Virus record (IMG/VR): IMGVR_UViG_2061766007_001878
Length of the DNA stretch: 64,000 bases
Source: an uncultured virus (IMG/VR IMGVR_UViG_2061766007_001878)
Taxonomy: Duplodnaviria; Heunggongvirae; Uroviricota; Caudoviricetes
Strand: one strand, 5' to 3'
Shown: piece by piece, positions 7,277 through 59,199 of the stretch
Layout: each line of letters starts with the position of its first letter
How positions within the stretch are numbered: position 1 is the stretch's first letter
Translations under genes and position numbers: made by a program
The notes under the pieces: generated by a model
Told to the model about the DNA's origin: nothing
The model's input: only the letters and a program-made list of their open reading frames with translations
Database searches by the model: none

Positions 7277-7296
7277 TTTATATTTTTTAGTATAAT
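7277..7296 (+). promoter_or_regulatory. Putative late promoter motif
   Basis: TTTAT-N8-GTATAAT upstream of ORF 7331. Confidence 0.55.
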
Positions 7297-7330: not shown

Positions 7331-8134
7331 ATGAACAATAATATTAAAATCGCAAAGCAATTGATTGCCCTCGCCAAAGAACTTATCGCTGTTCCGACCG
7401 CTACGTTTAATGATTTTAATCAGTTTAACAATGATTACAAAAATACGCATGGCAAGAATGTTGACAGTTCGATTTGGGATTTGTTCGCGACACAAGCCCA
7501 AGTGGATGCATTCTTGAAGGCGAAGTCTCAGGCTCATCCAAATCTGTCTGAATTCATTGATAAGGGAACATTGGAGAAAATCCTGAAAAAGGGTTATTTC
7601 ACAATTTGTTCCGCTGGCATAAGCTCAGCCGAGTATTCCGCTCTTTTGAAGAAATATACAAATGATGACGGCGTGTTGGACGAACAGGGATTTGAAAAGG
7701 AGAAAAACAGTCTTGTCAAGTCAAGGCTTGATGAATTCTGCAAGTTCCTTGATTCGCTCGATGTCAAGTATTACGAAGTCCTTGGGCAGTTCTATGATGA
7801 GGGGTCGAAGACCGAGCTTGCGGAATTGAGCTATATCGTCGATTTGACTAACATCGGCGAGAACAGCGATGCCGAAGCCAAGCAGATTATGAAGAAGATT
7901 TCCAATTACTGCGGGAACAACATGAACCAGACTGCCGTTATTGAAGGAATCAAGGGATTGGGTGCATATGTGTTCTGCGGTGACAGAAGCCATCTTCCCA
8001 AACGTGGAGAAGGCGACATGGGATATGGTCGTTCGACAGTGAGACATGACCAGAGAAACAGAACGGACTGGTCTGATGACTATGGATTCGGAGACGAGCC
8101 TCCTGCCCAGCCGTCGAAAAAAGATTGGATTTGA
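7331..8134 (+). CDS. Leader-bearing protein; possible SAM-lyase/DUF3293-like fold
   Basis: AGGAG RBS; leader MNNNIKIAKQLIALAKELIA; spaced motifs FTICSA, VLGQF, ELSYIV and NQTAVI. CDS is solid; function is tentative. Confidence 0.5.
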   Translation: MNNNIKIAKQLIALAKELIAVPTATFNDFNQFNNDYKNTHGKNVDSSIWDLFATQAQVDAFLKAKSQAHPNLSEFIDKGTLEKILKKGYFTICSAGISSAEYSALLKKYTNDDGVLDEQGFEKEKNSLVKSRLDEFCKFLDSLDVKYYEVLGQFYDEGSKTELAELSYIVDLTNIGENSDAEAKQIMKKISNYCGNNMNQTAVIEGIKGLGAYVFCGDRSHLPKRGEGDMGYGRSTVRHDQRNRTDWSDDYGFGDEPPAQPSKKDWI

Positions 8135-9904: not shown

Positions 9905-10438
9905 ATGGAAAAGAAAAACATCATTTTTGCAAAACGCCTTATCCATATGGCGCGAATGCTTCTTGCCGACAATGAGCATCATGGTCATTATTCCATTGAC
10001 AACGGTTCGGACAACAGTCTTGTCGTGTATTTCATTCTCGACGAGAATGCTGTTGAATCCAAGGCATTGGAGAATGCGAACGTCTGCCGTTATGAAATCA
10101 AGAAGAAATTGGAGAATCTCGATGGTTCGTTCGATGTGACCAGCATGGAGAACAATGACCACAAGAGCTTTTGTTTCAGCATTATCCCGAACGATGATGA
10201 AAAGAAAGCGTCTGTCTCTAATTCAAGGATGATGGTCGCCATAGGTGACGAGCCTGACGACGGAGGCGGTCTTGATTTAGGTGGTGGAGATGACAAGATG
10301 CCTGATTTGGGAGGCGGGGATGACAGCCCAGAAAAACCAGAAAAGTCAGAGCCTCCGAAGGACGATGAGACAACGAAGAAAATAAAGGAAATCGTGAAGG
10401 AAGTCTGCAAGAAGCATGGATGGGACGCGGAGTCTTGA
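9905..10438 (+). CDS. Leader-bearing hypothetical protein with a Gly/Asp low-complexity segment
   Basis: Leader MEKKNIIFAKRLIHMARMLLA; DLGGGDD occurs twice. Confidence 0.75.
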   Translation: MEKKNIIFAKRLIHMARMLLADNEHHGHYSIDNGSDNSLVVYFILDENAVESKALENANVCRYEIKKKLENLDGSFDVTSMENNDHKSFCFSIIPNDDEKKASVSNSRMMVAIGDEPDDGGGLDLGGGDDKMPDLGGGDDSPEKPEKSEPPKDDETTKKIKEIVKEVCKKHGWDAES

Positions 10439-11224: not shown

Positions 11225-11914
11225 ATGAATAAGGAGAAAGTCGAGAAAATCGCGAAATTGCTGGTCGCTGCCCCCAAGCATCCTGATACCGATTGCGGTC
11301 AGGGAATCATCATGGCTGATGAAAACTTGAAGCTCGGAAATATGACGCACTACGGGACTTTTGTGACTGTCAGTGGTCCATATGCAAGCATGGTGAAAAT
11401 CAAGGATTTTCTGAAGGAAAAGAAATTCCAGTATATTCCGTACAAGAGAATCTGGGCGTGCTTCTGGAACCAGTGCAAATGGGATGAAATCGAATCTGGC
11501 ATCAAGAGCATCCTGAATGGAGATGGACAGCAGGGTGAATCCATGAATGATTCTGCTTCTGGTGATTTCAGTGACATCTGGTTGCTTGACGAAGGAGGAC
11601 CTGGTGTTCATTTTGTCAGAAACTGGAATACGTTTAACCAACCGATGTTCATTCCAGAACTGAAAAGTGAAATCGACAGCTTTAAGGCGAAATGCTGTGC
11701 TTTGCTGAATGTCATTGCAAAAGCACTTCCAGGAAGCGTTATCGGGCAACTCCTAGACCATTTTGCAAAAGACGACGCATATGAATGGGAATGGAATGAC
11801 AGATGGATTTACACGGTGACAATTCCAGCCAGTAAAGAGGAAAAGAAAGTCATTGCCGAGATTTGCAAGAAAAGCGGAGTAAAAGTTCCAGGTTTGAATC
11901 AATACGAGAAATAA
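11225..11914 (+). CDS. Leader-bearing hypothetical protein
   Basis: AAGGAG RBS; MNKEKVEKIAKLLVA. Confidence 0.8.
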   Translation: MNKEKVEKIAKLLVAAPKHPDTDCGQGIIMADENLKLGNMTHYGTFVTVSGPYASMVKIKDFLKEKKFQYIPYKRIWACFWNQCKWDEIESGIKSILNGDGQQGESMNDSASGDFSDIWLLDEGGPGVHFVRNWNTFNQPMFIPELKSEIDSFKAKCCALLNVIAKALPGSVIGQLLDHFAKDDAYEWEWNDRWIYTVTIPASKEEKKVIAEICKKSGVKVPGLNQYEK

Positions 11915-12039: not shown

Positions 12040-13020
12040 ATGCATAAGCATAATCTTGATTTTCATGTCAGCGGGATACTGACCAATCCAGAAGAACAGT
12101 GGGACAGAATCAAACGGGCTTCTATGGGGAAGAACCGCGTCGCCTTCCGTAAAATCGACGTGGACTGGAAGAAGTACAACACGAAAGACTACCTTTTTAC
12201 TCATGATACCGCATGCTGTTCCGTCGAGACGGAGGAGAACGGCTACTGGATTACCCCGCCGTGCTGGGAGCTGGTCAACGCCAACGGCAACGCTTGGACA
12301 ACCCCAGTGCTTCTGGCATCGTTCAAGACGTTCATTGGCGGTGATAATTTTGAAGAGCATATTCNNNNNNNNNNGGCGGAGAAGTGCCGTCAGGTCGTCG
12401 ATGACATCTGCGCGAGGTACATGGAAGANNNNNNNNNNCTCGATGCCATCGCCCGTCCAGTCGTCCATCATTCGGAAAAGTACGGCGATGCCCACATTTA
12501 CGTCATCGATTGTCTGGTCGCGACAAATAGAAAGCATACGGCTTTGATTGAACGTATTGAATCTGGAAAGCTCAATACGTTGAGCATGGGTACCATTTGC
12601 AATTATACAACCTGCTCCATTTGTGGCAAGGTCATCGGCGACAACGACCGCAACTGCGAGCACCTCGACAATCATCTTGGTCAACTGGTCACATGTCAGG
12701 ACGGAAAAGAGCGAATCTGTGCAGAATTGTGTGGCGCGGTCGATGAAAACGGAAACTACATCGAAGGGTCGAACTCCTTCATAGAGCTATCGTGGGTAGG
12801 GCATCCTGCGTTTCAGGGAGCCGTAATTAACTCTTTTGTAGAAAATGAAGAAATAAAAACTGCAAGAGAAGAAGAAAAGGAAGAACTTGCTAAACTATTT
12901 GAAAGCAATCTTTTTGAAAGACTTAAAGTGGCTGATACAGATAGTAAAATTGCTTTGAAGATTACTAAGGAAATTGGAAAAGTAGAAAGAATTTCCAGTG
13001 ATATCATGAAAAAGATTTGA
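12040..13020 (+). CDS. Putative prohead (capsid maturation) protease, HK97/assemblin-like, with a Cys/His insertion
   Basis: NANGNAW, FEEH (candidate catalytic His), LSMG (candidate catalytic Ser), CSICG..CEH and FIELSWVGHPAFQGA (the ExSxVxxPA motif). 12375-12428 is a misplaced island. Confidence 0.75.
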   Translation: MHKHNLDFHVSGILTNPEEQWDRIKRASMGKNRVAFRKIDVDWKKYNTKDYLFTHDTACCSVETEENGYWITPPCWELVNANGNAWTTPVLLASFKTFIGGDNFEEHIXXXXAEKCRQVVDDICARYMEXXXXLDAIARPVVHHSEKYGDAHIYVIDCLVATNRKHTALIERIESGKLNTLSMGTICNYTTCSICGKVIGDNDRNCEHLDNHLGQLVTCQDGKERICAELCGAVDENGNYIEGSNSFIELSWVGHPAFQGAVINSFVENEEIKTAREEEKEELAKLFESNLFERLKVADTDSKIALKITKEIGKVERISSDIMKKI

Positions 13021-13078
13021 ATTTTCAAAAATTCAAACCATATTTTTTATTTAAAAAACAGCAAAAGGAGAAAATGAA

Positions 13079-13873
13079 ATGGATAAGAATGTGAAGATTG
13101 CAAAAGAATTGGTAAGATTGGCGAAGTTGCTGGTTGCTGAGCCTCGTGGTGATTACAAGAAACTCAGCAGACCACAGCAACACGAGAGGGAATTGGAGAA
13201 TGATGTTCAAATGGAAGATGCCTTTATCGCCAAGCTGGAAAGCGAATACAAGAGGGTGAAGAATCTTCTAAGCTCTAACGGCTTTTCGGAAGATGACGCC
13301 ACAGGTGATTTTAAATCAGATTTGGAAGAAGCCAAAAACGCCATTGAAAAGGGCGAACCTGTGAACGGCGAAGAAAAGAAGAATCTTGAATACGTTTTAA
13401 GGAATTTTGGCTTGATTGACGAAGCCAAGATGAAGACTTTTAAAGAAGCATTTGAACTTAAAAAGAAAGTCGATAAATTATATGAAGAGGGGAAGAAAGG
13501 TCATGAATCGTATTATGATGACTTTTTCAGTTTGTATGAAATGGATTCTTACCAAAATTATGAGTTTTCAATTTATTGCACCGACTGTGGATTAAAAGAG
13601 TTAAGGCGTTGTGAATATGAGCTTACCAATGCAATTAATCATTGGAAACAATGCCCGAATATCGCGAACTGGATTATCTCCATATACAACAGTGGCGAAG
13701 AGGGACGGAAAGACGCGATTAACGCTGGATTCCATCAGGAATGGCTTCAAGATTCGAAACTGAACTATCTGAAAGACCATGCGTATGAATTCAAGTACCG
13801 CCTTGGAAACATGGGCTATAAATACAACGAGAACTACACATACAGCACCGATTCGACGGAAAATCTTAAATAA
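13079..13873 (+). CDS. Leader-bearing hypothetical protein
   Basis: AAGGAG RBS; MDKNVKIAKELVRLAKLLVA. Confidence 0.8.
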   Translation: MDKNVKIAKELVRLAKLLVAEPRGDYKKLSRPQQHERELENDVQMEDAFIAKLESEYKRVKNLLSSNGFSEDDATGDFKSDLEEAKNAIEKGEPVNGEEKKNLEYVLRNFGLIDEAKMKTFKEAFELKKKVDKLYEEGKKGHESYYDDFFSLYEMDSYQNYEFSIYCTDCGLKELRRCEYELTNAINHWKQCPNIANWIISIYNSGEEGRKDAINAGFHQEWLQDSKLNYLKDHAYEFKYRLGNMGYKYNENYTYSTDSTENLK

Positions 13874-13895
13874 GCACTAGATAATATATTCAATT

Positions 13896-13933
13896 AAAAA
13901 AGGTACGCTTTGGTTTTACAGCGTGCCTTTTTT
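13896..13933 (+). terminator. Intrinsic terminator
   Basis: AAAAAAGGTACGCT/AGCGTGCCTTTTTT. Confidence 0.75.
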
Positions 13934-14089
13934 GTAATGAGTGTCATTCCTTTGTCGATGCGATGAAGCATGGGAATTTTGTTTATGAATTGAAAAATTC
14001 GTGAATGGTATAATAAAATGAGATGAAAGTCTGAAAAGTAGGAGTAACATGTACTATCTGTTTTTAAAAAAATAAAAGGAGGAAAGAAC

Positions 14090-14491
14090 ATGGATACGCC
14101 TATTATCGACAAGAACATGAAGGTTTGTCTCGGCAACTGCATCAGGGTGTCGAATGTCGAGAAGAAGAACAGGCTTGAGGCAAGCGTTTACGTCTGTATT
14201 CAGGTCGAAAGTGAGGATGGGAAGAGCGAGTACGCGATATTGCTGACACAGGGCGAGTATGATAAAATCATCAAAGCCGACACGTTTGACATGAAGAGCA
14301 TGGTGCCTGGCAGAATCTACGCGAAGTTCATTCTGTCCAAGAACTACTACACGGTCAGGCTGAAGGGCTACGACGGCGTGGAATTCGTCGGGCTGTTTGA
14401 AATCGGCGACTGGAGGAAGTATTACGAACGCGCCCTGAAGCATCCGAATTCCTGCACGAAGAAGAGCTTTCTGGCGGACATTCTGGACTGA
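14090..14491 (+). CDS. Hypothetical protein
   Basis: AAGGAGG RBS; TTGAAA...TATAAT-like promoter near 13990-14014. Confidence 0.8.
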   Translation: MDTPIIDKNMKVCLGNCIRVSNVEKKNRLEASVYVCIQVESEDGKSEYAILLTQGEYDKIIKADTFDMKSMVPGRIYAKFILSKNYYTVRLKGYDGVEFVGLFEIGDWRKYYERALKHPNSCTKKSFLADILD

Positions 14492-15597: not shown

Positions 15598-17040
15598 ATG
15601 CCAAGAAGAAAAAAGGAAAGCGAGGGGAAATCGACGGTTTTGAAAATCATGGATGAATTCGACTGGGGTCGGATTCTCTACAACGCATGCTACATCTTCA
15701 ACAAGGGCTTTGCCGAATACCTTGAAGATTATGCGAAAAGGTACGATGAAGGAGATGTCGTGGTGGACGACGCGGAAAAGGAGACCGAGAAGCTGATAAG
15801 CCAGCGGGATGGACTCATAGATGAACGTAAACGCCTCCATGACGAAGTGAGGAAGGCATCGACGGAGAAGACCAGCGCATTCAGGCAGTACGCCAAGGCG
15901 TTTCCAGTGGGCGAAGTGGTGGCTAACTGGCGCAAGGACATGCTGGCTGGCAGGAAGACAGGCGAGAACATCGACAAGTACCGCAAGCTCATCAGCAACA
16001 GGAGCGAACTGGAAAAGGTATTTCATGCCAGTGTCGAGAAGGAAAAGAGGACTTCGAGGGCGGAACGCAGATATATTGATTCGAACTTATTCGCCACGAG
16101 GACGCTCAACCAGAAGGTAAAAAACATCAGGAAAATGGTGGACAAGCACAGCATTCCGCTTGGTCACAGGATGTCGGACGAGATAAAGCCGTTGCAGGAG
16201 CTTATCCTGTCGGAAGGTCAGACGGAAAGGCTGATGGCGGTGTGCCTGAACATCCTCAATACGTATTCCGAGAAGGATTTCAGTTCCACGCTTGAAGTTT
16301 CCGAACGAGAGCGCGTGGTGGAAGGCATCTATTCGTTCTTCTCGAATTTCGAGCATAACTACGACTTTATTTCAGGGTGCTATGAAGTGGACGAGGAAAC
16401 GCATGAATTGAAGATGAAGCCACTTGATGTGCTTGAGAACAAGATTTACAATGGATACTATTTCACCATCCGTGGATATGTCCAACGCGCCTATGCCAGC
16501 GTCAGGTTCGAGCGGTACAATGTCGAAAGCACCGACATGAACTGGGAGCAGGATACGGACAACGGAAACCACGGAATCGACAGGAAGCTGTCCAGCGAGA
16601 CCGACGCGGAGCCAGCGGGTCTTCCTGTAAGCAAGGAGCCGATGCCGTTGGACGACGGGATGATGGACATCTGGACGGACTGCAACAAGTACCTGTGGGA
16701 CAATATCGAGGACATGTCGGACGAGATTACTGGCGAGCTGTCGAAGAAGTTCCCGCGCAACCCGTACTACAGCCTCGACAACATGCTGGACACGATGCCC
16801 GTGGTGATGTCGATGGTAATCGACAGCGTGAACGAGGAGCTGGTGGCTGGCAACGTCATCGGCAACAAGCTGAAGCACATCATACTGGATTCGATGGGCG
16901 GTGCCGAGACGAACGAGGAATGGAGGCAGAACGTCACCATCATCTCGAAAATCATGGCGAAGTACATCAGGAAGTTCTTCTCCGCCGAGAAGTGCCGTCA
17001 GGTCGTCGATGACATCTGCGCGAGGTACATGGAAGAATGA
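15598..17040 (+). CDS. Helical hypothetical protein, 480 aa
   Basis: Long ORF with GAGG RBS behind a TTGAAA...CATTAT promoter-like sequence (15505-15534). Confidence 0.8.
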   Translation: MPRRKKESEGKSTVLKIMDEFDWGRILYNACYIFNKGFAEYLEDYAKRYDEGDVVVDDAEKETEKLISQRDGLIDERKRLHDEVRKASTEKTSAFRQYAKAFPVGEVVANWRKDMLAGRKTGENIDKYRKLISNRSELEKVFHASVEKEKRTSRAERRYIDSNLFATRTLNQKVKNIRKMVDKHSIPLGHRMSDEIKPLQELILSEGQTERLMAVCLNILNTYSEKDFSSTLEVSERERVVEGIYSFFSNFEHNYDFISGCYEVDEETHELKMKPLDVLENKIYNGYYFTIRGYVQRAYASVRFERYNVESTDMNWEQDTDNGNHGIDRKLSSETDAEPAGLPVSKEPMPLDDGMMDIWTDCNKYLWDNIEDMSDEITGELSKKFPRNPYYSLDNMLDTMPVVMSMVIDSVNEELVAGNVIGNKLKHIILDSMGGAETNEEWRQNVTIISKIMAKYIRKFFSAEKCRQVVDDICARYMEE

Positions 17041-18829: not shown

Positions 18830-19453
18830 ATGATGAGCGAAGAGAAGATAGCCAAGATGGTCGCGAGAATCGCGGAGGACAATACAAAAGCCACACGGGA
18901 TAACGTAAGATACGAAAGGTGGTCGGGTGAAATCGACTATAATGGAACAAAAGGCGTGGTGAAGTGCGCCACGTTTGCGTTGCGTGATGGAAATGTCGAA
19001 TGGGAGGAAGGAACTTGGCTGTCTGGTACTTGGAATGGAGGCGTATGGAAGTCTGGAATCTGGGAGAATGGGACTTGGAACCGAGGTGTCTGGAAGTATG
19101 GCATCTGGAATGACGGCGAATGGCTGAAAGGCACTTGGGAGCTTGGAAGCTGGTATGATGGAACTTGGCATAACGGCATCTGGGAATATGGATTCTGGAA
19201 CGACGGAAAGTGGCTTTATGGCGAATGGAAGTCAGGGGCTTGGAACGGAGGAAGTTGGAAAGGCGGAATCCATCGCAAGGGCGAGTGGTATGGTGGAAGA
19301 TTCGACTGGGACAAGGACAAATCCAAAATATCCAGATGGGAGGATGGAATCTGGTTCGACGGCATTTGGAAGGATGGGGAATGGCTGAAAGGTCAGGATG
19401 AGGACAGGCGGAATCGCACGAATTCGCCGAACAATTGGGAAGAAGGCGAATGA
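18830..19453 (+). CDS. GxWxx pentapeptide (Trp-rich) repeat protein 1, leader-bearing
   Basis: More than 20 GxWxx units; N-terminal EEKIAKMVARIA; C-terminal SPNNW. Confidence 0.85.
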   Translation: MMSEEKIAKMVARIAEDNTKATRDNVRYERWSGEIDYNGTKGVVKCATFALRDGNVEWEEGTWLSGTWNGGVWKSGIWENGTWNRGVWKYGIWNDGEWLKGTWELGSWYDGTWHNGIWEYGFWNDGKWLYGEWKSGAWNGGSWKGGIHRKGEWYGGRFDWDKDKSKISRWEDGIWFDGIWKDGEWLKGQDEDRRNRTNSPNNWEEGE

Positions 19454-20463
19454 GGCTGAATATTGCATATGCCACGACTCACGGTTGGAACATAGGAGAC
19501 GATTTCATAAGAATTGGATGTGAACGTCTCCTTGAAACCATTTTCCCAAATCACAATCATATCATTTATGACAAATCCCCTTATGTCAGGGATATAAAGG
19601 GACTTGTTTATGAAAAATGCAATAATGAGTTCCACGGTAATTCTTTGCAGGTCTTGAAACATTCCAAGTTGAAAATCGACCTGATGGTGGTAGCTGGCAC
19701 TCCTGAAAATTCCAGTGACAGGATGCTGAAATTCTTTGAAGTGAATCAAAAAACGCCTGTTATTGCATTGGCTGTCGGAGAACCGTTGAATAAACCAAAG
19801 ACCAAGTTCATCCAATATTTCAAACGGTGCGGTCTTCTGACGGTTAGAAGCAAAGGCATTCTGGACAAATATATTGAAGTTTTTGGAGACAATGTACAAT
19901 ATTTGCCATGCACCAGCCTTTTTTGGACGGACAAAATGAAGCAAGTCGACGAAGTGAGAAAAGTCGCTCTTGGATGGAAATGCAAAGAAGGAGCTGGTCT
20001 TACTTATAATTCCATTCCTCAAAAGTATTATGACAAAATGATTTCCTTGTATGAACGGCTTGTTTCAGAAAATAAATCCATCGAATTTTTTATCGTATGC
20101 CATCATGTAGATGAATTGAAAGATGCAATGGAGCATTTTCCGAATCTGGATGTTCGCTATCATTATGATGAGCATAAATATGCTGACATATACTGGGATG
20201 CGGATTTTGTCATCACGCCGAAAGTGCATGGATGCGGGTGTTGTGCTAGCATGGGGATTGGAGGGGCGTTTCTTCCTACAGATTTCAGGTCTGACACAGT
20301 GGACGGATTTTTAAGTGTGATTTCATGGGACAAGGATGAAATATGCAGTGCGATGATGAAAGGGAATGAAATTTCCGAAAAGTTGAAGACGCACAAGGAA
20401 GAAAGTTTTTCAAAGTATGTCGAATTGCTTGAAAAATGGAAAAAGAAGATTGATTTTAATTGA
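19450..20463 (+). CDS. Polysaccharide pyruvyl transferase-like (GT-B) protein
   Basis: NIGDDFI at the N-terminus; TVR; YWDADFVITPKVHG (TxR/KxHG motif). Confidence 0.7.
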   Translation: MRLNIAYATTHGWNIGDDFIRIGCERLLETIFPNHNHIIYDKSPYVRDIKGLVYEKCNNEFHGNSLQVLKHSKLKIDLMVVAGTPENSSDRMLKFFEVNQKTPVIALAVGEPLNKPKTKFIQYFKRCGLLTVRSKGILDKYIEVFGDNVQYLPCTSLFWTDKMKQVDEVRKVALGWKCKEGAGLTYNSIPQKYYDKMISLYERLVSENKSIEFFIVCHHVDELKDAMEHFPNLDVRYHYDEHKYADIYWDADFVITPKVHGCGCCASMGIGGAFLPTDFRSDTVDGFLSVISWDKDEICSAMMKGNEISEKLKTHKEESFSKYVELLEKWKKKIDFN

Positions 20464-23127: not shown

Positions 23128-23148
23128 AATCATCCTTGTTTCATACAG

Positions 23149-23178
23149 AGCCAGTGGGCAATTGCCCACTGGCTTTTT
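23149..23178 (+). terminator. Intrinsic terminator
   Basis: Palindrome AGCCAGTGGGCAATTGCCCACTGGCT plus T-tract. Confidence 0.85.
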
Positions 23179-23201: not shown

Positions 23202-23222
23202 CTTATATTCATGAGGTATAAT
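23202..23222 (+). promoter_or_regulatory. Putative late promoter motif
   Basis: CTTAT-N9-GTATAAT at the head of the 23253-27633 operon. Confidence 0.6.
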
Positions 23223-23252
23223 GTGTAAAATGTTTTTAACGGAGAATTCTCA

Positions 23253-24416
23253 ATGAACGATGATTTTACAAAGATAGCATCCAAGGTGTTTCTTGCGTTT
23301 ACATGCAGGAAGTACGTGATGGAAGATGGATTCGACTACGACGGAGCTGACAGAGGACTTGTGTTGTTCAACTACAACTACTATCCTATCATCTGGGCTT
23401 ATCCGAAGGAAGAACGTATCTATATCATCTTCACTTACAAGGCAGATGATGCCTTCAATGAATTTTTGTCTTTGAGACGTTCCAATTCTCCTCAACTAGG
23501 CGACATAGGCAAGGAGATAAAGGACTGGATGGACGAGCATCCACGCGGGGTGATTTGCAAGAATTTCAGAATCATGCTTTGGAATTCCATCCATAAGGAG
23601 AAAATGACCAAGTTCAAGAATGCGGATTTCCTTATCAGCACGCATACAACGTTGTCAGTCGAAGAAGCGCAGAAATTCTTCACGGAGAAATATGACATCA
23701 GCATGACGGATTTCTACAGGGCATTTGGTGGTGAAGTCTCCGAGGACAGGAAGTTTTCCTGCGAGGGTATGAATTTCGAGGTGAATGATTCGTCTTTAAC
23801 AAAAGAGACGGTTGAAGCCAAGATGCGTGAAGTCAAATCCAAGTTGCCTGACAGTCTTGCGAGCAAACTCATCTACGGGAAAGTCGAGTTGAAGAGTAAA
23901 TTCGCGGACAATGCCATTGCGGATTATCATGCAACGAATGATTTGATACGAATTGACGCGGGCGATGAATTTGTCAGTTCCATGATTCACGAACTTGGTC
24001 ACAGATGGCATTACAAGTTCTGCACAAGGTTGCAACAGAGGAAGATTGAGAAATTATACAAGTTGTGCAAGGACGATAAAAGCGATGCCATCGGCGAACT
24101 GGAATACGGGGATGTGGTGGAATTGTATGGAAAATATAAATATTGCATTGTTGATTCAAATGATTTCCACTATCGTTGCTATAGTATTGACGAGGAAAAT
24201 CCTCCGACAAGGACAATTCCAAAGAATTTTTTTCATACGAAGACTGTTACGTCCGTGAACGGAAAACCTGTTGACCATAAATATATGTTGCCTCGTCCGT
24301 ATGCAGGGAAGAACATACGTGAATTCGTGGCGGTATGCTTTGAGCATTTGTACTATGGAAAAAGCATAAGCAGTAAACTTGCTGAAGAAATGAAGGAGAT
24401 ATTTGAAAATGGATAA
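23253..24416 (+). CDS. Leader-bearing zincin-like metallopeptidase
   Basis: MIHELGHRWH (HExxH) and downstream YAGKNIREFVA (third-ligand Glu motif); N-terminal DFTKIASKVFLA. Confidence 0.65.
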   Translation: MNDDFTKIASKVFLAFTCRKYVMEDGFDYDGADRGLVLFNYNYYPIIWAYPKEERIYIIFTYKADDAFNEFLSLRRSNSPQLGDIGKEIKDWMDEHPRGVICKNFRIMLWNSIHKEKMTKFKNADFLISTHTTLSVEEAQKFFTEKYDISMTDFYRAFGGEVSEDRKFSCEGMNFEVNDSSLTKETVEAKMREVKSKLPDSLASKLIYGKVELKSKFADNAIADYHATNDLIRIDAGDEFVSSMIHELGHRWHYKFCTRLQQRKIEKLYKLCKDDKSDAIGELEYGDVVELYGKYKYCIVDSNDFHYRCYSIDEENPPTRTIPKNFFHTKTVTSVNGKPVDHKYMLPRPYAGKNIREFVAVCFEHLYYGKSISSKLAEEMKEIFENG

Positions 24417-25143
24417 AATCGAAAAAGTTGCGAAGAAGGTGATTGCCCTCGACCCAGAGCTTGAAGGGCATCACTACAATATGGACAGTGAAAATCCAGC
24501 GGTGTACGTCGGCACATATGGAAAGTACGCTGGTGGTTCCATCGACGGGATGTGGGTGGACTTGACTACATTTGACAGTTATGATGAATTCTATGAATGG
24601 TGCTCGAAGGTATTGCACAAGGATGAAGCTGAACCAGAACTGATGTTTCAGGACTATGAGAATTTCCCAGAAACGTATTACGGCGAATCTGGTCTGAAAC
24701 CAGAGCTTTGGGATTACATAAAAGCTCTTGACGAGTGTGACAAGGATGTAATAGATGCCATTCTCGACGAAGGTTATACGCTTGAAGACGCGAAGAATGC
24801 AATCGTTTATCCAGACTGCGATGACATGTCGGATGTCGCCTATGCGATGGTCGATGAATGCGGTGAGGATGCTTTTTCCAAAAACGCATGGGAGACGGCG
24901 TTTGACTATGAGAGATTCGGTCGTGAATACCAGTGGGATTTGGATGCGGACGACCGTGAGCAGTATGATGGAATGTCAGACCTTGAAGTTGGCGAGCAGG
25001 TTGTCGAGGAATTCGGCGGTCTTGAGGAACTAAGTGATGAGACAATCAAGGAATATGCCAATTTCAAGACTCTTGGCGACTGGCTTGAATCTGGTGGCGA
25101 ATGGGTCAAATACGATGGCGGTTATGCCGAGATTATACAATAG
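24409..25143 (+). CDS. ardA: ArdA antirestriction protein with an N-terminal leader
   Basis: PAVYVGTYGKYAGGSIDGMWVDL, EPELMFQDYENFP and FDYERFGRE; highly acidic; AAGGAG RBS; leader MDKIEKVAKKVIA. Confidence 0.9.
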   Translation: MDKIEKVAKKVIALDPELEGHHYNMDSENPAVYVGTYGKYAGGSIDGMWVDLTTFDSYDEFYEWCSKVLHKDEAEPELMFQDYENFPETYYGESGLKPELWDYIKALDECDKDVIDAILDEGYTLEDAKNAIVYPDCDDMSDVAYAMVDECGEDAFSKNAWETAFDYERFGREYQWDLDADDREQYDGMSDLEVGEQVVEEFGGLEELSDETIKEYANFKTLGDWLESGGEWVKYDGGYAEIIQ

Positions 25144-25153
25144 GGAATGACAT

Positions 25154-25441
25154 ATGAACAGCAGGATGCGAATCGCATTGGAACTTGTGAGGATTGCTGC
25201 CGACCTTTCCCCAGATGAAATGCTGGAGGAAATCGACGGCATGACAATTCCGCAGTTGATGAATACGATACGCAAGAATACAAGCAACTACCAGTCTTTG
25301 TCGCCGACATTGAAAATGGAGAAGTTCAAGAACAAAGTGGATTTGTCGAAACCAGTGAAACGAATGACCATCAAGGAGCTGTTCAGATTGTTGGCGAAGA
25401 TAGGAATCAAAACTGATGCTGAAGAAGCCGAGGAGCAATAA
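25154..25441 (+). CDS. Small leader-bearing protein
   Basis: MNSRMRIALELVRIAADL; internal repeat MTIPQL / MTIKEL. Confidence 0.75.
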   Translation: MNSRMRIALELVRIAADLSPDEMLEEIDGMTIPQLMNTIRKNTSNYQSLSPTLKMEKFKNKVDLSKPVKRMTIKELFRLLAKIGIKTDAEEAEEQ

Positions 25442-25442
25442 T

Positions 25443-26210
25443 ATGGACAAGATTGCAAGAATATCAATGAGAATCGCTGGATTTGAGCTGGATGGACGCT
25501 TGTTCACCCAGCGCACGGCGAGGAATGCTGCGGATTTTCTTTCGAAGACTCTTTCCAAGTACACGCATGATGTGTACAACAACGAGGACAAGAAATACAA
25601 GGAACTCTACAATGCGAAGAATGAATTGTTCCAGTATGGCATGAATCTCGAATCCAAGGAAGAACATACGGACGTGTCCGACAATGGCTCGTGGAAGGAC
25701 TTGTATCATTTCTCGTTCAGAAACTTTGAAGGAAAGGAATTCACGATATGCGTGGAATTCAATGTCATGCTGGCTGGTACGACGACCGACCATGAACTGA
25801 GCTATGATTTCACGGTTCAGGCTTGGGACGAAAACAAGGAGACGCAGTACGATGCTCCTGCAATCAATCATGAAATCGCGTCGATGTCACGACCAAAGGC
25901 GTGCAAGGCAATTCAGAGGATGGTTGACAAATACACGCATGACGTGTACGACAACAAGGATTATCGGTTTACTGTGTTGCAGAGGGCGCATCAAATCGTT
26001 GATTCCATAGGCATGGAAAGTCTTGATTGCGACAGGAAGGATTTTCGCAATGATTACGGAGATGTGACTGGATACACGGAGGTCGATACATACAGATATT
26101 TGGATGCCAATTTGAAGGAAGTAAAACTCAGTGTGCGATGGAGCGTATATTACGCTGGTTCAATCGGAGACATCAAGAACAGGTATGATTTCACGGTGGA
26201 TGTTTATTAA
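25443..26210 (+). CDS. Leader-bearing protein with a duplicated domain
   Basis: MDKIARISMRIA; KYTHDVY and YDFTV each occur twice. Confidence 0.8.
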   Translation: MDKIARISMRIAGFELDGRLFTQRTARNAADFLSKTLSKYTHDVYNNEDKKYKELYNAKNELFQYGMNLESKEEHTDVSDNGSWKDLYHFSFRNFEGKEFTICVEFNVMLAGTTTDHELSYDFTVQAWDENKETQYDAPAINHEIASMSRPKACKAIQRMVDKYTHDVYDNKDYRFTVLQRAHQIVDSIGMESLDCDRKDFRNDYGDVTGYTEVDTYRYLDANLKEVKLSVRWSVYYAGSIGDIKNRYDFTVDVY

Positions 26211-27118
26211 TGAACAGCTCAAGACACAAAATAGCAGAGGAATTGGTCAGGATTGCCAAGGAGCTTGTCGCATGGCGCGACAAATCCACACAGCCTGTGA
26301 GACGGGAGAAGTCACGTCTTGACAGACAGGTGGACGAAGGCATTGGCGAGTATTTTGACGACGGCGATGATGAAGAGCTTGACTTGTCCCAGTTCATGCG
26401 AATCAGGAATGTCTATGACGAGGACGAAGCCGAGACGATACAATATCAATATGAGCAGGCGATGAGCCGTGACCATGACTATCTGGGAAATGTCTATGGA
26501 TGGTCGCTCAATCCGACGACTCAGATAATCGAATCCGAAGACGGCGATTATGTGGTCGGGTTCAGATGCGGTAACGCATTCATCCTGAGCCATTTCGCCC
26601 CTAGGACTCTTTCCAGCGGGATGAGGTTTGTCTCCGCATTGGCGAATTGGGAGCAGAGTGTCATCGCAGCGGTGCTACCAAAGCAGGCTGGGATGCTTGA
26701 GCGTCTTGGTTTCAAGAATGTCGGGACGGTACCGCAGTGGTTCAACGGCGAAACGGTCATGAAGACTGTGATGGTCAACGGGGCGACGACGGAGGCGGTT
26801 CTCAATTATGTCCTTTCACAAGGGACTGGAAAATCCATCGTCGTGATATATCTCGGCACGCCAGAGATGTATTCGGCGGAGGAAATCGCCAATGAAATCA
26901 AGAATGACAGCAAGATGCAGGATGAATTCCTCAACTTCGTGCAGAACTACAAGGACTACCGTTCGTTTGTGCCGATGGTCAGGGTGTTGCATGTGTTGGA
27001 TTATTTGACTAAAACCATGAAGGGGACGGATTTTCTTAAAAATTGCGTCGATGCGATGGACAAGTTATTTTCATCGAATTTCCAATGGAAGAAATTCAAG
27101 AGCAGGCATTTGCTTTAA
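26210..27118 (+). CDS. Leader-bearing protein with a possible GNAT-like domain
   Basis: HKIAEELVRIAKELVA; AGMLERLGFKNVG resembles the C-terminal GNAT motif. Function is tentative. Confidence 0.55.
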   Translation: MNSSRHKIAEELVRIAKELVAWRDKSTQPVRREKSRLDRQVDEGIGEYFDDGDDEELDLSQFMRIRNVYDEDEAETIQYQYEQAMSRDHDYLGNVYGWSLNPTTQIIESEDGDYVVGFRCGNAFILSHFAPRTLSSGMRFVSALANWEQSVIAAVLPKQAGMLERLGFKNVGTVPQWFNGETVMKTVMVNGATTEAVLNYVLSQGTGKSIVVIYLGTPEMYSAEEIANEIKNDSKMQDEFLNFVQNYKDYRSFVPMVRVLHVLDYLTKTMKGTDFLKNCVDAMDKLFSSNFQWKKFKSRHLL

Positions 27119-27653: not shown

Positions 27654-27686
27654 AATGCCGAACAGGTAAAACTGTTCGGCATTTTT
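27654..27686 (+). terminator. Intrinsic terminator
   Basis: AATGCCGAACAG/CTGTTCGGCATT followed by Ts. Confidence 0.85.
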
Positions 27687-27694: not shown

Positions 27695-27713
27695 CTTATG
27701 TTATGCGTATAAT
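27695..27713 (+). promoter_or_regulatory. Putative late promoter motif
   Basis: CTTAT-GTTATGC-GTATAAT. Confidence 0.65.
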
Positions 27714-27747: not shown

Positions 27748-28113
27748 ATGGAAAATGAAAGACTGACTAGAATTGCAAAGAGCATCGTCGGAAGAAGCCA
27801 AATGGTGAAGACATGTGTTGTCCACGACGAAGGGCTTTGCGATTTGCACATAGAGGAATCCGTGTTCGCTCAGGATGAATACACGTATCAGAATCTGATG
27901 GACGATATTGAAGGATTTTTGTATGATGTGGACAGGGAGCTTGGATATTTGACTGCGCTTGATAAGGAAGTGGTCACGTGTGACAAAAACAAAATACATG
28001 TCTGTACTGGAAGCGATGCAGACCTCATGTGTTTTTCGTATGATTGCTCTATCTATATGAGCGATGAAGGCATGGAAAGAATACGTAACAGCGAATGGAG
28101 AATCAAGGAGTAA
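27748..28113 (+). CDS. Leader-bearing hypothetical protein
   Basis: MENERLTRIAKSIVG. Confidence 0.75.
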   Translation: MENERLTRIAKSIVGRSQMVKTCVVHDEGLCDLHIEESVFAQDEYTYQNLMDDIEGFLYDVDRELGYLTALDKEVVTCDKNKIHVCTGSDADLMCFSYDCSIYMSDEGMERIRNSEWRIKE

Positions 28114-28119: not shown

Positions 28120-28461
28120 ATGGATAAAGAGAAAATTGAGAAAATCGCAAAGACATTGGTGGCTGACAATGGTCTTATTGGAGTTGTACAAGATGTCGGT
28201 TATCAGAAGGGGTATCTTCTGTATTGTGAACAGTATCTTGGAAAGTCCGAACAGGTTGACGGTATGGCTGTCGCCATTGAAGATGAATTCATCCAGAAAT
28301 ACAATGCGTATTCATTCCCAGAAGGGGCATTGTTCAAGTGCCTTGTGAAACAGAGAGGTGAAGTCAGCATTGGATTTGAATTCCAGGAAGTGACTTCTGA
28401 TGAAATTGACGCTCTTGTATTGAAACACCATATTACGCTCAGATGCGACGACAGACCATAA
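28120..28461 (+). CDS. Leader-bearing hypothetical protein
   Basis: AAGGAG RBS; MDKEKIEKIAKTLVA. Confidence 0.8.
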   Translation: MDKEKIEKIAKTLVADNGLIGVVQDVGYQKGYLLYCEQYLGKSEQVDGMAVAIEDEFIQKYNAYSFPEGALFKCLVKQRGEVSIGFEFQEVTSDEIDALVLKHHITLRCDDRP

Positions 28462-29188: not shown

Positions 29189-29584
29189 ATGGCTGACGGA
29201 AAACCAGAGACATTCATTTTGAAGGCACCGATTGACTACGTGCAACAACGTGGGAATTTCATTGAATTCCTCGTGTCCATCGGGAAGGACGGGGATACTG
29301 GAGCGGAAATCTACGACGGAATCATCGATTTCCTTTCCCAGCCAGCGGAAACGTACATGAAGTACGATGTCATCCATAGCAGGATAAAGGCGTTCAGGGA
29401 CAAGCTCGGATGGATGGTCAGGCTGTACGTCGAGGATGACGGGAACAACGCCCTGTTCCGCATACAGGCTGTGCATCAGGATTTCTGCCTCCTGTTCTAC
29501 ACGGAATTTAAGTCGATATACGGGGATGTCGAGAAGATGCGCCTTGCCAGCATAGCGAAGAAAATCGCAATGGATTGTAATTAA
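29189..29584 (+). CDS. Hypothetical protein with a C-terminal leader-like motif
   Basis: GGGGAG RBS; ends MRLASIAKKIAMDCN. Confidence 0.75.
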   Translation: MADGKPETFILKAPIDYVQQRGNFIEFLVSIGKDGDTGAEIYDGIIDFLSQPAETYMKYDVIHSRIKAFRDKLGWMVRLYVEDDGNNALFRIQAVHQDFCLLFYTEFKSIYGDVEKMRLASIAKKIAMDCN

Positions 29585-31779: not shown

Positions 31780-31849
31780 TATATATTCATACACCATTTT
31801 ATACACTATAGTTCTTTTTGAACTCAAAATCCAAAAAACTTTGCCGTTT

Positions 31850-31887
31850 TACCGACTTCATCAGCTTCATGGTGGAGTCGGTTTTTT
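31850..31887 (+). terminator. Intrinsic terminator between convergent blocks
   Basis: ACCGACTTCATCA/TGGTGGAGTCGGT plus T-tract; a second hairpin CCACATGGA/TCCATGTGG at about 31899-31921 could serve the minus strand. Confidence 0.75.
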
Positions 31888-31956
31888 ATAACAAAAAACC
31901 ACATGGAAAACATCCATGTGGCTGTATTTTTGTTAATCTTCTTTATTAAATCGAAT

Positions 31957-32421
31957 TCATGCCGTCTGCTTTTTATTCATGATGACTTCGACCGTGTAAT
32001 ATGTGTCGTCATCGTCGATGCATCCAAAACACGAATGAGTCCGCCCTTTGCCACGTTCAAGAACAAGCTCGTATTCCTTCTTGCCTTCTAGCATTGCGAA
32101 ATTGTCCTTGACCAATGGCAACAGTCTCTTGGTAGAGCATACATAGTTCCCTCCTCTGTCGTAATACTGGAACGCGCATTTGTCCTTCCCGCGTCTCTCC
32201 ACGTGTAGGTTTGTCCACTCGTACACGCAGTCCTCGACGAAGCAGGACAGGTCATAGTCCTTGTCCACCTTCTCGGTGAAGAAGAACGTCCTGATTGCGT
32301 CTATCTTCTTGTCGTACTTGGCTGTCTTTTCGCCTTCCGACAATGCCTGCATCTTGTCCTCGACGCATTCCCTGTATGTGTCGGACAGCTTCCAAAGTAA
32401 TGGTTCGAATTCGATTTGCAT
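31957..32421 (-). CDS. Hypothetical protein
   Basis: AAGGAG RBS on the minus strand. Confidence 0.75.
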   Translation of the reverse strand: MQIEFEPLLWKLSDTYRECVEDKMQALSEGEKTAKYDKKIDAIRTFFFTEKVDKDYDLSCFVEDCVYEWTNLHVERRGKDKCAFQYYDRGGNYVCSTKRLLPLVKDNFAMLEGKKEYELVLERGKGRTHSCFGCIDDDDTYYTVEVIMNKKQTA

Positions 32422-34931: not shown

Positions 34932-35448
34932 TCTGCTCTCCTTTGCTCCAAGAAGACAACTTGTGCTCGCACTCCAATGGGCAGAATGTGGCTTCCTCCA
35001 ATGCATTCCCCTCTGAAAATCCAGCGTTTGAAGCTATCTGCCATGTTTCGTATTTTAATGTTAGATTCATCATGTTTTCATTTGTTATATTCATTGTCAT
35101 GTCTTCATTCGGAGATGGGCATTTATCTACCAAACATACTTCCAATTCATCATTCATATTGACAGTGACATTCTTTTCTTTAATGAATATGCCAAAACAC
35201 CAGCACGATGAAAACACATGCGTTTTTTTCATACACATCAAGACCGAACCAAGCAATTTGTCGTTCTTATGCTTATTGTCTTCTTTTGGAAGGGCGATGC
35301 TCACATTTTCAAGGCTGGTTTCCCATACATGATGCGCCCTTACAACGAAAGGGCAATTTTTATAAGGGCAGTTTTCCTTGCAGAGATTAACGTCTAGCAG
35401 ATGGCACTTGTCCATTACATAGTCTTTCACTCGGTCAAACGTGTCCAT
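34918..35448 (-). CDS. Cys-rich protein, CPxxxEH family
   Basis: CKENCPY...CPLECEHKL. Confidence 0.7.
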   Translation of the reverse strand: MDTFDRVKDYVMDKCHLLDVNLCKENCPYKNCPFVVRAHHVWETSLENVSIALPKEDNKHKNDKLLGSVLMCMKKTHVFSSCWCFGIFIKEKNVTVNMNDELEVCLVDKCPSPNEDMTMNITNENMMNLTLKYETWQIASNAGFSEGNALEEATFCPLECEHKLSSWSKGEQNGIV

Positions 35449-36063: not shown

Positions 36064-36064
36064 T

Positions 36065-40741: not shown

Positions 40742-40768
40742 TTGAAAAAATAAAAAGGAGTATGAACG

Positions 40769-41467: not shown

Positions 41468-41794
41468 ATGAATAAAAACATCAAAGTTGCAAAGAGTCTT
41501 ATCGCGTTGGCGAAGGAACTTGTTGGTTCATATGGGGATACTGCTTCTCACAAAGGGGAATACAAGAATTTTACAGGTACAGTCATTTGGAAGAACACGG
41601 CTGGTGATGTCAAGGATGCCACGTTTTATTTGAATAACGACGGAATTGTTTTTGTTGATGGAATATGGGAAGACGGGAATTTTGGCGGAAATCATTTTGA
41701 CCAATGGGAAAACGGAACGTGGAAAAAGGGTAAGTGGACAAGCGGGTACGACAAGGACGGAAAGCAACGCACCGACAGTCCAGACAAATGGTAG
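41468..41794 (+). CDS. GxWxx repeat protein 2, leader-bearing
   Basis: MNKNIKVAKSLIALAKELVG; short GxW array; ends SPDKW. Confidence 0.85.
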   Translation: MNKNIKVAKSLIALAKELVGSYGDTASHKGEYKNFTGTVIWKNTAGDVKDATFYLNNDGIVFVDGIWEDGNFGGNHFDQWENGTWKKGKWTSGYDKDGKQRTDSPDKW

Positions 41795-41842
41795 GAATTT
41801 GTGATTGGTTTGAAATTATAATATTTGCTTTGGAGTTTTTAT

Positions 41843-52520: not shown

Positions 52521-52541
52521 AAGTTTAACTTTTTGCTTATA

Positions 52542-58005: not shown

Positions 58006-58443
58006 ATGAACAAAAACGTGAAAATCGCGAAGGAATTGGTGAAATTGGCGAAAAGTTTGGTGGCTGATGATGTCCGTGTTGCTGACAAAATTGGAGAAGA
58101 ATATAAAGATTTTACTGGATGGATTAAATATAATGGTGAAAAAGTGTATGTATGTCGTGCTACATTTAAACTTGAATGGTATAAAGAATGGACACGTATA
58201 ATTTGGGAAGATGGTGAATGGTGTGATGGAGTTTGGTGTGATGGCATATGGAAAAATGGCACATGGGATGATGGAAGATGGATTGATGGCATATGGAAAA
58301 ATGGTACATGGAGAAATGGCACATGGGAAGACGGAACATGGGAAGACGGCATATGGCATAGTGGTACGTGGATAGGTGGAACCTGGAAACATGGTAAAAA
58401 TCAATATGGTGAAGAATATTCTAATTCTCCAAAAAATTGGTGA
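58006..58443 (+). CDS. GxWxx repeat protein 3, leader-bearing
   Basis: MNKNVKIAKELVKLAKSLVA; about 13 GxWxx units; ends SPKNW. Confidence 0.85.
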   Translation: MNKNVKIAKELVKLAKSLVADDVRVADKIGEEYKDFTGWIKYNGEKVYVCRATFKLEWYKEWTRIIWEDGEWCDGVWCDGIWKNGTWDDGRWIDGIWKNGTWRNGTWEDGTWEDGIWHSGTWIGGTWKHGKNQYGEEYSNSPKNW

Positions 58444-58521: not shown

Positions 58522-59199
58522 TTATTTGTCTATTATTTTCCATTTGTTAGGCGAAGCGTCCTTCGGATGCCATCCCTTCTTCTTGTCGTATCCGCCGTTC
58601 CACTGACCGCCGTTCCAAGTGCCTTCGTTCCACTGACCGCTGTTCCATACGACGTTGTTGAATTCGCCGTACCAGTTCAATCCGTCGTTCCAGATGCCGT
58701 TGTGCCAAGTCCCCTGCCAGAATGTCCCGTTGTCCCAGACCCCGTTCTGCCAGATGCCTTTCTCCCACCATCCGTTCAGGTGTATCCCGTTTTCCCATAC
58801 TCCGTTCTTCCATGTCCCGTCCTGCCAGACGGATGGGATTTTATCGTCAGCTTGTTTCCAGATGCCGTAATGCCATGTGCCGTACTTCCATGTACCGCTC
58901 ATCCACAGTCCGTTCTCCCATTCTCCGACCTGCCATTCTCCAGCTTTCCACAAGCCGTCCTTCCAAAGACCGTAAGCCCAGACTCCGTTTTCCCAAGTGC
59001 CGTCCCTCCAGACGATTCGACCGTTTTTCAGCTCGAATATCGCGTTCGTCACGATTCCCTTCGTGCCGTTGTAATCGATGGTTCCAGCCCATCCGTGGTC
59101 TTTCTTCCCGTATTTTCCGTCCTTGTTGGCGACTTCTCCAGCCAGAAGCATCTTAGCGGTCGCCAGCATTTCCTTCGCTATCCTGATGTTTTCGCTCAT
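58522..59199 (-). CDS. GxWxx repeat protein 4, leader-bearing
   Basis: MSENIRIAKEMLATAKMLLA; long GxWxx array; SPNKW near the end; GGAG RBS. Confidence 0.85.
   Translation of the reverse strand: MSENIRIAKEMLATAKMLLAGEVANKDGKYGKKDHGWAGTIDYNGTKGIVTNAIFELKNGRIVWRDGTWENGVWAYGLWKDGLWKAGEWQVGEWENGLWMSGTWKYGTWHYGIWKQADDKIPSVWQDGTWKNGVWENGIHLNGWWEKGIWQNGVWDNGTFWQGTWHNGIWNDGLNWYGEFNNVVWNSGQWNEGTWNGGQWNGGYDKKKGWHPKDASPNKWKIIDK

Follow-up and report, generated by a model that had tools for sequence, protein, structure and literature searches.

ArdA is a DNA mimic of conjugative elements that is expressed early after DNA entry. The locus described here raises the question of what such a protein does among the virion genes of a phage. 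It lies in the window, by which we mean the whole 64,000-nucleotide stretch of IMG/VR record IMGVR_UViG_2061766007_001878 (an uncultured virus of the Caudoviricetes), and consists of an ArdA gene whose product begins with a short leader peptide found on otherwise unrelated proteins of the same phage. We propose, at a probability of roughly 0.6, that this ArdA is packaged and injected cargo, and that its leader is a capsid-targeting signal of the T4 kind.

The window has a G+C content of 43.7% over 64 kb. PHROG matches, from a comparison of 59 of its open reading frames (ORFs), include topoisomerase II, PhoH, a Dda-like helicase, DNA methyltransferases, a head maturation protease and a UvsX gene interrupted by a homing endonuclease. 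Two related IMG/VR records were reached via the protease gene, G001 (255 kb, 78% complete) and G002 (329 kb, with terminal repeats, complete), which makes the window part of the genome of an uncultured jumbo phage. An unrelated T4-type phage, G003 (363 kb, 33.5% G+C), was used as a control for the window leader.

Identity and fold of the ArdA protein

The sequence-only reading of this locus had named the gene product ArdA, and this is borne out by family, structural and fold comparisons. Pfam PF07275 matches with an E-value of 1.6e-22 (81.2 bits against a cut-off of 27), aligning residues 32-177 with profile positions 1-143 of 155. PHROG 2059 ('anti-restriction protein') matches at 1.5e-18, and PDB entry 2W82 (Tn916 Orf18 ArdA) at 2.9e-9, with residues 30-174 aligned onto 4-147. 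The AlphaFold model, made from a 44-sequence alignment, has a predicted local distance difference test score (pLDDT) of 90.1, and its fold begins at residue 31. Foldseek with this model returned E<=0.001 only for chains A/B of 2W82 (prob 1.00, template modelling score TMt 0.63-0.69); the next row has an E of 0.59. The identity and the fold of the protein are thus established. ArdA is the sole domain of the 244-aa protein, which is not a polyvalent fusion and is strongly acidic (whole-protein isoelectric point 4.05). The product appears to be a functional-looking ArdA, i.e., a DNA-mimic inhibitor of type I restriction-modification enzymes.

Compared with classical ArdA, the protein has 29 additional residues at the N-terminus and an insertion of about 60 residues in the C-terminal domain. 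The insertion is common to a jumbo-phage clade of ArdA proteins that includes both of the leader types described below, and in the alignment it is absent from P0016-18 and from classical ArdA. The additional N-terminal residues comprise the leader and a linker, of which the H-x-Y part precedes the core in other ArdA clades too. The leader is modelled as a helix (residues 2-14) outside the ArdA fold, with a mean pLDDT of 51 for residues 1-10 and 76 for residues 11-20.

A leader peptide shared by unrelated proteins

Proteins of this phage that have nothing else in common carry one short terminal peptide. The pattern (K/R)-I-A-(K/R)-x-L-V-A begins about 13 otherwise unrelated ORFs of the window, and the leader is also present on ORFs of G001 and G002. 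At 11 of the window ORF starts it takes the form M-(N/D)-K..(K/R)-I-A-(K/R)-x-L-V-x-(L/I)-A-K-x-L-V-A or a single-repeat variant. Apart from ArdA, none of the window proteins that carry it matches a Pfam or PHROG family.

A hidden Markov model (HMM) seeded with 11 window N-termini has 16 matches above 16 bits in the window and G002, all 16 of which start at the first methionine of the ORF. It adds two window ORFs that were not among the seeds (11225 and, on the minus strand, 58522-59199), recovers many ORF starts in G002, and has nine matches in G001. It matches none of the 5,475 ORFs in the six frames of the unrelated G003. An independent HMM, seeded only with seven double-repeat leaders of G002, finds nine window ORFs other than ArdA at 10-45 bits.

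The leader of ArdA itself is of the short kind. The eight-residue pattern [KR][IVL]A[KR]x[ILVM][IVL][AG] has ten matches, ArdA included, over the six frames of the window (86,196 residues), every one of them within about 25 residues of the first methionine of an ORF, and none in the 363,647 residues of G003. The short form appears to be non-random, because the pattern is always found at ORF starts in the window and never in G003. That ArdA carries the shared leader, as the sequence-only reading had it, is supported by this distribution and by the canonical form of the leader in its homologues (see below).

Proteins encoded at syntenic positions may have only the leader in common: the products of window gene 7331 and of G002 gene 143897 are 50% identical over residues 1-20 and unrelated over the remainder. 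T4 Ip1-3 are described as showing the same pattern (PMC12373910). The G002 protein (143897-144517), which carries the leader of the window type, has a sub-threshold match to S-adenosylmethionine (S-AdoMet) lyase (E 4.5e-5, 23.8 bits, cut-off 28).

A few proteins bear a weaker copy at their C-terminus. Leader-like helices were seen at the extreme C-termini of G002 31802-32092, 35436-36329 and 36334-36663, and of window 5114-7264 and 29189-29584. The three G002 genes sit just upstream of the capsid gene, and the C-terminal helices may be native partners or models of the N-terminal tag.

A second lineage with a different leader

The ArdA relatives P0022-P0036 begin differently. One ArdA of this kind is encoded by G003; it is 98% identical to P0027, belongs to the same subfamily as the window ArdA, has the same insertion of about 60 residues, and begins with a different leader, KLTYNDFKYMITESIKRILRE. 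By a simple pattern, eight G003 ORFs begin with M-x-K-I-I-I-T-E-x-Q-(L/F), all at residues 2-4. With an HMM seeded from five long-form G003 leaders, ArdA not among them, the G003 ArdA reaches 17.1 bits (E 0.001 genome-wide) and further ORF starts come up; the window, G001 and G002 yield no match. The G003 ArdA was not recovered by a previous HMM of this type, for which eight leaders of mixed form had been used. The second leader, noted at G003 253405-274160 and across the genome, starts at least 13 ORFs in the form M-x-K-I-I-I-T-E-x-Q-L..ES-x-K-K-x-L-K-E, and some copies are internal or C-terminal.

The G003 leaders end in (L/I/V)-x-E. The consensus of the T4-family protease is L/I-x-E, and the (L/I)-x-E site cut by the S77 (gp21) protease is present in the G003 leaders and is not found in those of the window lineage. 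Gene order in G003 is as follows: leader-bearing 390-aa protein, leader-bearing ArdA, 249-aa protein, endonuclease, Peptidase_S77 (6.4e-27), endonuclease, leader-bearing 270-aa protein, acidic 499-aa protein, and Gp23 capsid protein (5.5e-71). Judged from these gene assignments, the neighbourhood has the layout of the T4 prohead-core genes. Other leader proteins of G003 match InPase (PF18823, 2.3e-48) and, above cut-off, the S-AdoMet lyase family (3.8e-7); one has a sub-threshold match to a glucosaminidase, and several contain domains of unknown function. The T4 late-promoter word TATAAATA gave no signal in G003 (51 and 49 occurrences against about 50 expected).

One ArdA subfamily thus bears, in each of two lineages whose proteases and capsid proteins differ, the tag of that lineage. 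We regard this comparison as the strongest support for packaging. The sequence-only reading had suggested that ArdA is packaged and co-injected; the suggestion is strengthened by a G003 ArdA whose leader ends in L-x-E and whose gene lies near those for S77 and gp23, and it is still to be read as a proposal.

Promoter-like motif and gene unit

ArdA is the second gene of a six-gene unit between terminator-like hairpins (Table 1). Its start overlaps the stop of the upstream gene by 8 nt, therefore both genes form one operon, and an AGGAG lies 10 nt ahead of its ATG. The hairpins, together with the motif at 23202-23222, confirm that the gene stands in a unit of leader-bearing genes behind a recurrent motif.

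The window has 21 copies of the word GTATAAT where 4.27 are expected, and none of 100 shuffles reaches 21. The bipartite motif has 11 window sites, including 7277-7296, 23202-23222 and 27695-27713, and precedes genes 7331, 8558, 12040 (the protease), 18785, the ArdA unit, 27748, 41468, 58006 and the minus-strand gene 58522-59199, among others; tail-module genes and giant virion-like genes also follow it. Motif and leader are both associated with virion genes. In general form the promoter-like element is TTTT-(C/T)TTATAT-N5-7-GTA(T/G)AAT; it is compact and lacks a -35 box. A phage-encoded factor may recognise it; no candidate for one was identified.

In G002 the motif lies directly ahead of ArdA (at 93349), and GTATAATA is the most intergenic-enriched 8-mer, with 21 of its 33 occurrences intergenic. 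There are 35 intergenic GTA(T/G)AAT sites with a downstream gene in G002. Five of the genes behind them are giant ORFs; the others include tail-module genes, leader genes, ArdA and some genes of mobile elements. No gene recognised as a replication gene is among them. The last gene of the ArdA unit, which is conserved in G002, probably encodes a Mu gp36-like head-tail connector: Atlas gives 0.96, with 194 features shared with Phage_Mu_Gp36 clusters, and the sole Pfam match (PF07030, E 0.16) is below the cut-off.

These distributions fit a promoter class of virion (late) genes, a class assignment that does not by itself prove timing. Late expression of ArdA, as claimed before, gains indirect support from the motif ahead of protease, tail-module, giant and leader genes and from the putative connector in the unit.

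Prohead protease and head genes

The protease gene is flanked by leader genes (7331, 9905 and 11225 before it, 13079 after it). Homologues annotated as head maturation or prohead protease are found in Tunturiibacter phage Tunturi_5 (34.9% identity, 1e-28), Gordonia phage Pupper and Rhodococcus phage E3. The genes next to the protease in Tunturi_5 show no similarity to window genes 13079 and 14531. The product of 13079 is helical and charged, and is in the position of a scaffold or core protein.

No Pfam S77 match was found for the protease, and PDB sequence searches with the protein and with its profile returned only chance zinc-finger rows. The fold was taken from a model of the unmasked G001 orthologue (pLDDT 79.9). 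With this model the top 26 rows of VIA are all herpesvirus proteases (Z 6.0-8.4, root-mean-square deviation 2.4-3.5 A over 90-129 residues), and the best Foldseek row has an E of 0.011 (prob 0.98). The modelled fold is of the herpesvirus assemblin kind; the Z values are moderate, and what gives the match its weight is that all these rows belong to one family. His107, Ser167 and His193 are invariant in 27 homologues. They follow the His-Ser-His order of assemblins, and we take them to be the candidate catalytic residues.

The capsid protein of G002 is of a small HK97 type (phrog_2522). Its gene (39633-41866), as also in G001, consists of frames of 72 aa and 205 aa around a 389-aa HNH/homing-endonuclease ORF, which could be an intron or other insertion. 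Protease homologues elsewhere carry inteins (Pfam PF05203, PF14890). Inside the window protease gene, at 12365-12438, is a 54-bp stretch between two runs of 10 N that duplicates the 3' end of ORF 15598-17040 (copy 16986-17037). The G001 orthologue has ordinary sequence at this site, and the stretch is probably a scaffolding or assembly artefact.

Proposed mechanism and alternative explanations

We propose that a jumbo-phage lineage added its own 13-residue amphipathic address helix to ArdA. The helix would be a capsid-targeting signal of the kind represented by the T4 capsid-targeting sequence (CTS), by which proteins with nothing else in common dock onto the prohead core during assembly; the assemblin-like prohead protease may cut the leader off after its conserved L/I-V-A end. 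ArdA would be expressed alongside the virion genes, enter the head and leave it together with the DNA, so that type I enzymes would meet their inhibitor before expression of any phage gene begins. We infer each of these steps: late timing, docking, cleavage, packaging and injection.

Several observations weigh against this proposal, and we give them here together with the explanations that they would favour. The window-lineage leaders end in L/I-V-A/G and have no conserved Glu. Cleavage after L-V-A is a guess from the modelled protease fold and from the rule for herpesvirus proteases (V/L-x-A↓S); to our knowledge a herpesvirus-like Ala specificity has not been described for a phage prohead protease. 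Early morons would be an equally fitting reading of the self-contained promoter-terminator units. The RNA-library contigs on the ArdA unit (see below) show no more than that it is represented in an RNA library. Not all leader genes are in head modules (41468 is in the tail module, and 58006 and 58522-59199 are near a methyltransferase).

The leader could instead be an intracellular localisation helix, directing proteins to the membrane or DNA-entry site, a phage compartment or the nucleoid, in which case the leader proteins, ArdA included, would stay unpackaged. With a maximum hydrophobic moment of 0.56-0.87 and a net charge of up to +4 over the first 20 residues, the helix is strongly amphipathic and, for the most part, basic, which also suits binding to membranes or nucleic acids. 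Leader genes are scattered over the genome, and C-terminal copies occur, as with portable targeting helices. However, such a role leaves the clustering round protease and capsid genes without reason and does not explain a G003 leader with a T4-protease-type end beside S77 and gp23, and the ArdA leader itself has a net charge of -1 over the first 20 residues. We consider localisation without packaging unlikely.

It is also possible that the leader is an assembly tag of the double-repeat proteins only, and that the motif on ArdA is a chance match or a relic, ArdA being an ordinary cytoplasmic protein in a late-looking unit. The ArdA leader is the short single-repeat form (KVAKKVIA), like those of 28120, 11225 and 27748; the independent G002 HMM gives it 1.0 bit, which is not significant; and the eight-residue pattern was composed after ArdA had been seen. 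The N-termini of the best 120 of 412 ArdA homologues, classed by eye and by HMM, bear on this explanation from both sides. About 85 of the 120 have unrelated N-termini, of 4 to more than 100 residues, and extensions of 20-60 residues are common. Eight (P0002-P0008 and P0010) form a sister clade with a degenerate leader, MNKETRIFVGAADGEL, as does the ArdA of G002 itself. Because of this clade the tag on ArdA would be either tolerant or dispensable, and the gene retains its place and promoter in the clade despite the degenerate N-terminus. On the other side, about 14 of the 120 carry the leader of the window type and about 13 the second type. The closest homologues (P0001, P0011, P0018 and P0021) have the canonical short form KIAK(K/R/S)(V/L/I)(I/V)A, and the KIAKxΦVA start is kept even at 48-57% core identity (P0009, P0011 and P0016-21). 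The eight-residue pattern never occurs away from ORF starts in the window, and the G003 ArdA bears the tag of its own lineage, which is hard to square with accident. A chance or relic motif is, in our judgement, about as unlikely as localisation without packaging. The same survey qualifies the earlier supposition that the extension is lineage-specific: extensions as such are common, and it is this leader sequence that is restricted to a few homologues. The special trait is an extension whose sequence is shared with other proteins of the same phage.

Least probable is a regulatory element (degradation tag, chaperone handle or translation-initiation enhancer) that tunes amount or lifetime and not location: the leader is tightly tied to one promoter class and lies at the extreme N-terminus, starting M-(N/D)-K, but synonymous variation speaks against an element at the RNA level (5-8 identical codons among 12-17 identical residues, so residues agree where codons differ and selection therefore acts on the peptide), C-terminal copies occur, and the amphipathic heptad pattern and the protease-site ending in G003 point to docking and cleavage.

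If ArdA is packaged cargo, a broader scheme can be drawn. In at least two jumbo-phage lineages, whose head-assembly systems are unrelated, short lineage-specific address helices would load into the capsid, for co-injection, both anti-restriction proteins that differ in mechanism (ArdA and S-AdoMet lyase) and other enzymes (InPase and a zincin-like peptidase); the ArdA subfamily would have swapped its address between them; the window address would imitate C-terminal helices of head proteins; and a protease with the assemblin fold would cut after L-V-A. We put this combination forward tentatively, at somewhat less than even odds.

If virion-delivered, ArdA would be a phage answer to type I restriction that acts before phage gene expression, as T4 has against type IV. 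The leader offers a simple sequence rule with which to list the injected proteome of uncultured jumbo phages, which may be a rich source of candidate anti-defence proteins. With two lineages, different tags and the same ArdA subfamily, the tags look modular and portable, and could be useful for loading foreign proteins into large capsids.

Neighbouring genes, relatives and host

Table 1. Features of the ArdA unit and other genes discussed (window positions).
Position	Strand	Feature	Basis or remark
7331..8134	+	267-aa double-leader protein	leader HMM; shares only the 20-residue leader with the syntenic G002 protein
9905..10438	+	177-aa leader protein	leader HMM and independent HMM
11225..11914	+	229-aa short-leader protein (KIAKLLVA)	leader HMM, 8-residue pattern; non-seed
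12040..13020	+	prohead protease	behind GTAGAAT motif variant; phrog_18299 1.4e-8
13079..13873	+	264-aa double-leader protein, directly after protease	leader HMM and independent HMM
23147..23176	+	terminator-like hairpin ending upstream unit	13-pair stem, then T run
23202..23222	+	bipartite promoter motif CTTATAT-N7-GTATAAT of ArdA unit	one of 11 window sites
23253..24416	+	first gene of unit, 387 aa, HELGH (HExxH) motif	sequence
24409..25143	+	ArdA ORF	244 aa; ATG at 24409, stop 25141-25143
24409..24447	+	ArdA residues 1-13, short-form leader MDKIEKVAKKVIA	modelled helix 2-14
24448..24495	+	ArdA residues 14-29, linker LDPELEGHHYNMDSEN	alignment
24496..24939	+	ArdA core, residues 30-177	PF07275, 2W82 alignment, fold match
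24940..25143	+	ArdA C-terminal part and stop codon	insertion of about 60 aa
25154..25441	+	95-aa leader-bearing protein	leader HMM 29.9 bits; independent HMM 12.1 bits
25443..26210	+	255-aa protein, weak leader MDKIARISMRIAG, internal duplication	leader HMM
26210..27118	+	302-aa protein, double leader HKIAEELVRIAKELVA	leader HMM 34.5 bits; independent HMM 22.2 bits
27133..27633	+	166-aa last gene of unit, without leader, conserved in G002	Atlas, weak Pfam
27654..27683	+	terminator-like hairpin ending ArdA unit	hairpin search
27695..27713	+	next promoter-motif copy	motif search
27748..28113	+	121-aa short-leader protein (RIAKSIVG)	leader HMM, 8-residue pattern; G002 orthologue at 95096
28120..28461	+	113-aa short-leader protein (KIAKTLVA)	leader HMMs, 8-residue pattern
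41468..41794	+	108-aa double-leader protein, W-rich repeats, in tail module	leader HMMs
58006..58443	+	145-aa double-leader protein, W-rich repeats	leader HMMs
58522..59199	-	224-aa double-leader protein, W-rich repeats, non-seed	leader HMM 10.4 bits; independent HMM 29.5 bits

The first gene of the ArdA unit is a candidate for a zincin-like metallopeptidase, which is only a lead (Atlas 'zincin-like metallopeptidase', 0.89; no Pfam or PHROG match). A counterpart of the 95-aa protein adjoins ArdA in G002 too (94154-94435). Assignment of the 302-aa protein as a GNAT enzyme was considered and dropped for want of support.

Four small leader-bearing proteins (41468-41794, 58006-58443, 58522-59199 on the minus strand, and 18830-19453) form a paralogous family. 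They have W-rich five-residue repeats (G-x-W-x-x) and each ends in S-P-x-x-W; no family match was found for them. The UvsX-like recombinase (51810-54760) is in two parts around a 450-aa gene for a GIY-YIG-type homing endonuclease (PHROGs 97, 314).

Other huge phages encode ArdA domains in another arrangement. In L001-L003 (IMG/VR contigs of 414-434 kb), P0025 and P0071 the domain is C-terminal in proteins of 358-781 aa, and these long proteins adjoin genes for anaerobic ribonucleotide reductase.

No close cultured phage was found: ArdA matches only two of 50,697 phage records, at 29.9% identity. A scan of IMG/VR with ArdA gave six loci, none from the lineage of the window, and a metagenome scan gave 26 loci, the nearest of which is partial and 56% identical. 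Two bovine-gut metatranscriptome runs yielded short, low-depth contigs covering parts of 13070-14479, 19081-20394 and 23246-26383. They reach ArdA at 24835-24985; strand and timing are not readable from them, and gaps in their coverage carry no meaning. Thus, bovine gut material holds relatives of the window phage. The strong AGGAG ribosome-binding sites suggest a Firmicutes-like host.

Comparison with known systems

The window protein resembles classical ArdA (Tn916 Orf18, 2W82; ColIb-P9 ArdA) in family, fold and strong acidity. It differs in its 29-residue N-terminal addition, where classical forms have 3-7 residues before the first strand (2W82, P0031, P0060), in the C-terminal insertion, and in the virion-gene context.

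Polyvalent proteins are a second point of reference. In 2017, Iyer et al. proposed packaging of InPase domains in virions and, for ArdA domains, transfer along with injected DNA as parts of polyvalent proteins (PMC5512222). Shared with these proteins are a predicted delivery with DNA and a repertoire including ArdA, zincin-like metallopeptidase and InPase (PMC5512222): the window ArdA follows an HExxH protein, and G003 tags InPase. Polyvalent domains are fused in one giant polypeptide, whereas here they are separate small proteins with a shared address peptide.

Incorporation of the Dar proteins of phage P1 is ordered and protein-dependent, and does not proceed via one shared short leader. These proteins are unrelated to ArdA and protect DNA in cis. 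Dar (DarA, DarB, Hdf, DdrA/B) are head-carried, injected anti-restriction proteins against type I systems (PMC5512222). Pfam and PHROG scans of the six proteins of the unit, made with no search using Dar proteins themselves, named no Dar family. The sequence-only reading had offered P1 Dar as precedent; T4 Ip1-3, with their capsid-targeting sequence, are closer.

The jumbo phages phiKZ, 201phi2-1 and SPN3US pack dozens of ejection proteins that are processed by the prohead protease (PMC5694885). Their propeptides differ from the window leader in being mostly long, in not sharing one sequence, and in being cut at (S/A/G)-x-E.

The CTS of T4 is of the MKTYQEFIAE type. The window leader differs from it as a K-I-A-K-x-L-V-A heptad, single or double, that is without a Glu cleavage motif; the protease of the window lineage is not Pfam S77, though its modelled fold is assemblin-like, and the capsid protein is of the small HK97 type. 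The cargo also differs, since ArdA targets type I enzymes and the T4 Ips target type IV GmrSD. The likeness to T4 Ip1-3 and Alt is that unrelated proteins share an N-terminal leader of 10-20 residues for loading into the prohead core, and that Ip1-3 are injected with DNA, are anti-restriction proteins, and are encoded by cargo genes that differ between related phages (PMC12373910, PMC3012670 and PMC5694885). These papers describe Ip1-3 as non-homologous anti-restriction proteins sharing only the packaging leader (PMC12373910, PMC3012670), and CTS peptides of 10-20 residues, with T4, phiKZ and SPN3US proteases cutting after Glu (PMC5694885). The window system may work in a T4-like way, but it is not a homologous member of the T4 system. 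In the literature searched on ArdA and packaging, part of it as excerpts, we found no description of a leader-tagged or virion-borne ArdA, and the available parts of the Jug-phage paper (PMC12880540) mention neither ArdA nor propeptides. To a principle that is already T4's, the locus adds a different leader, another family of protease, ArdA as the proposed cargo and a swap of tags between lineages.

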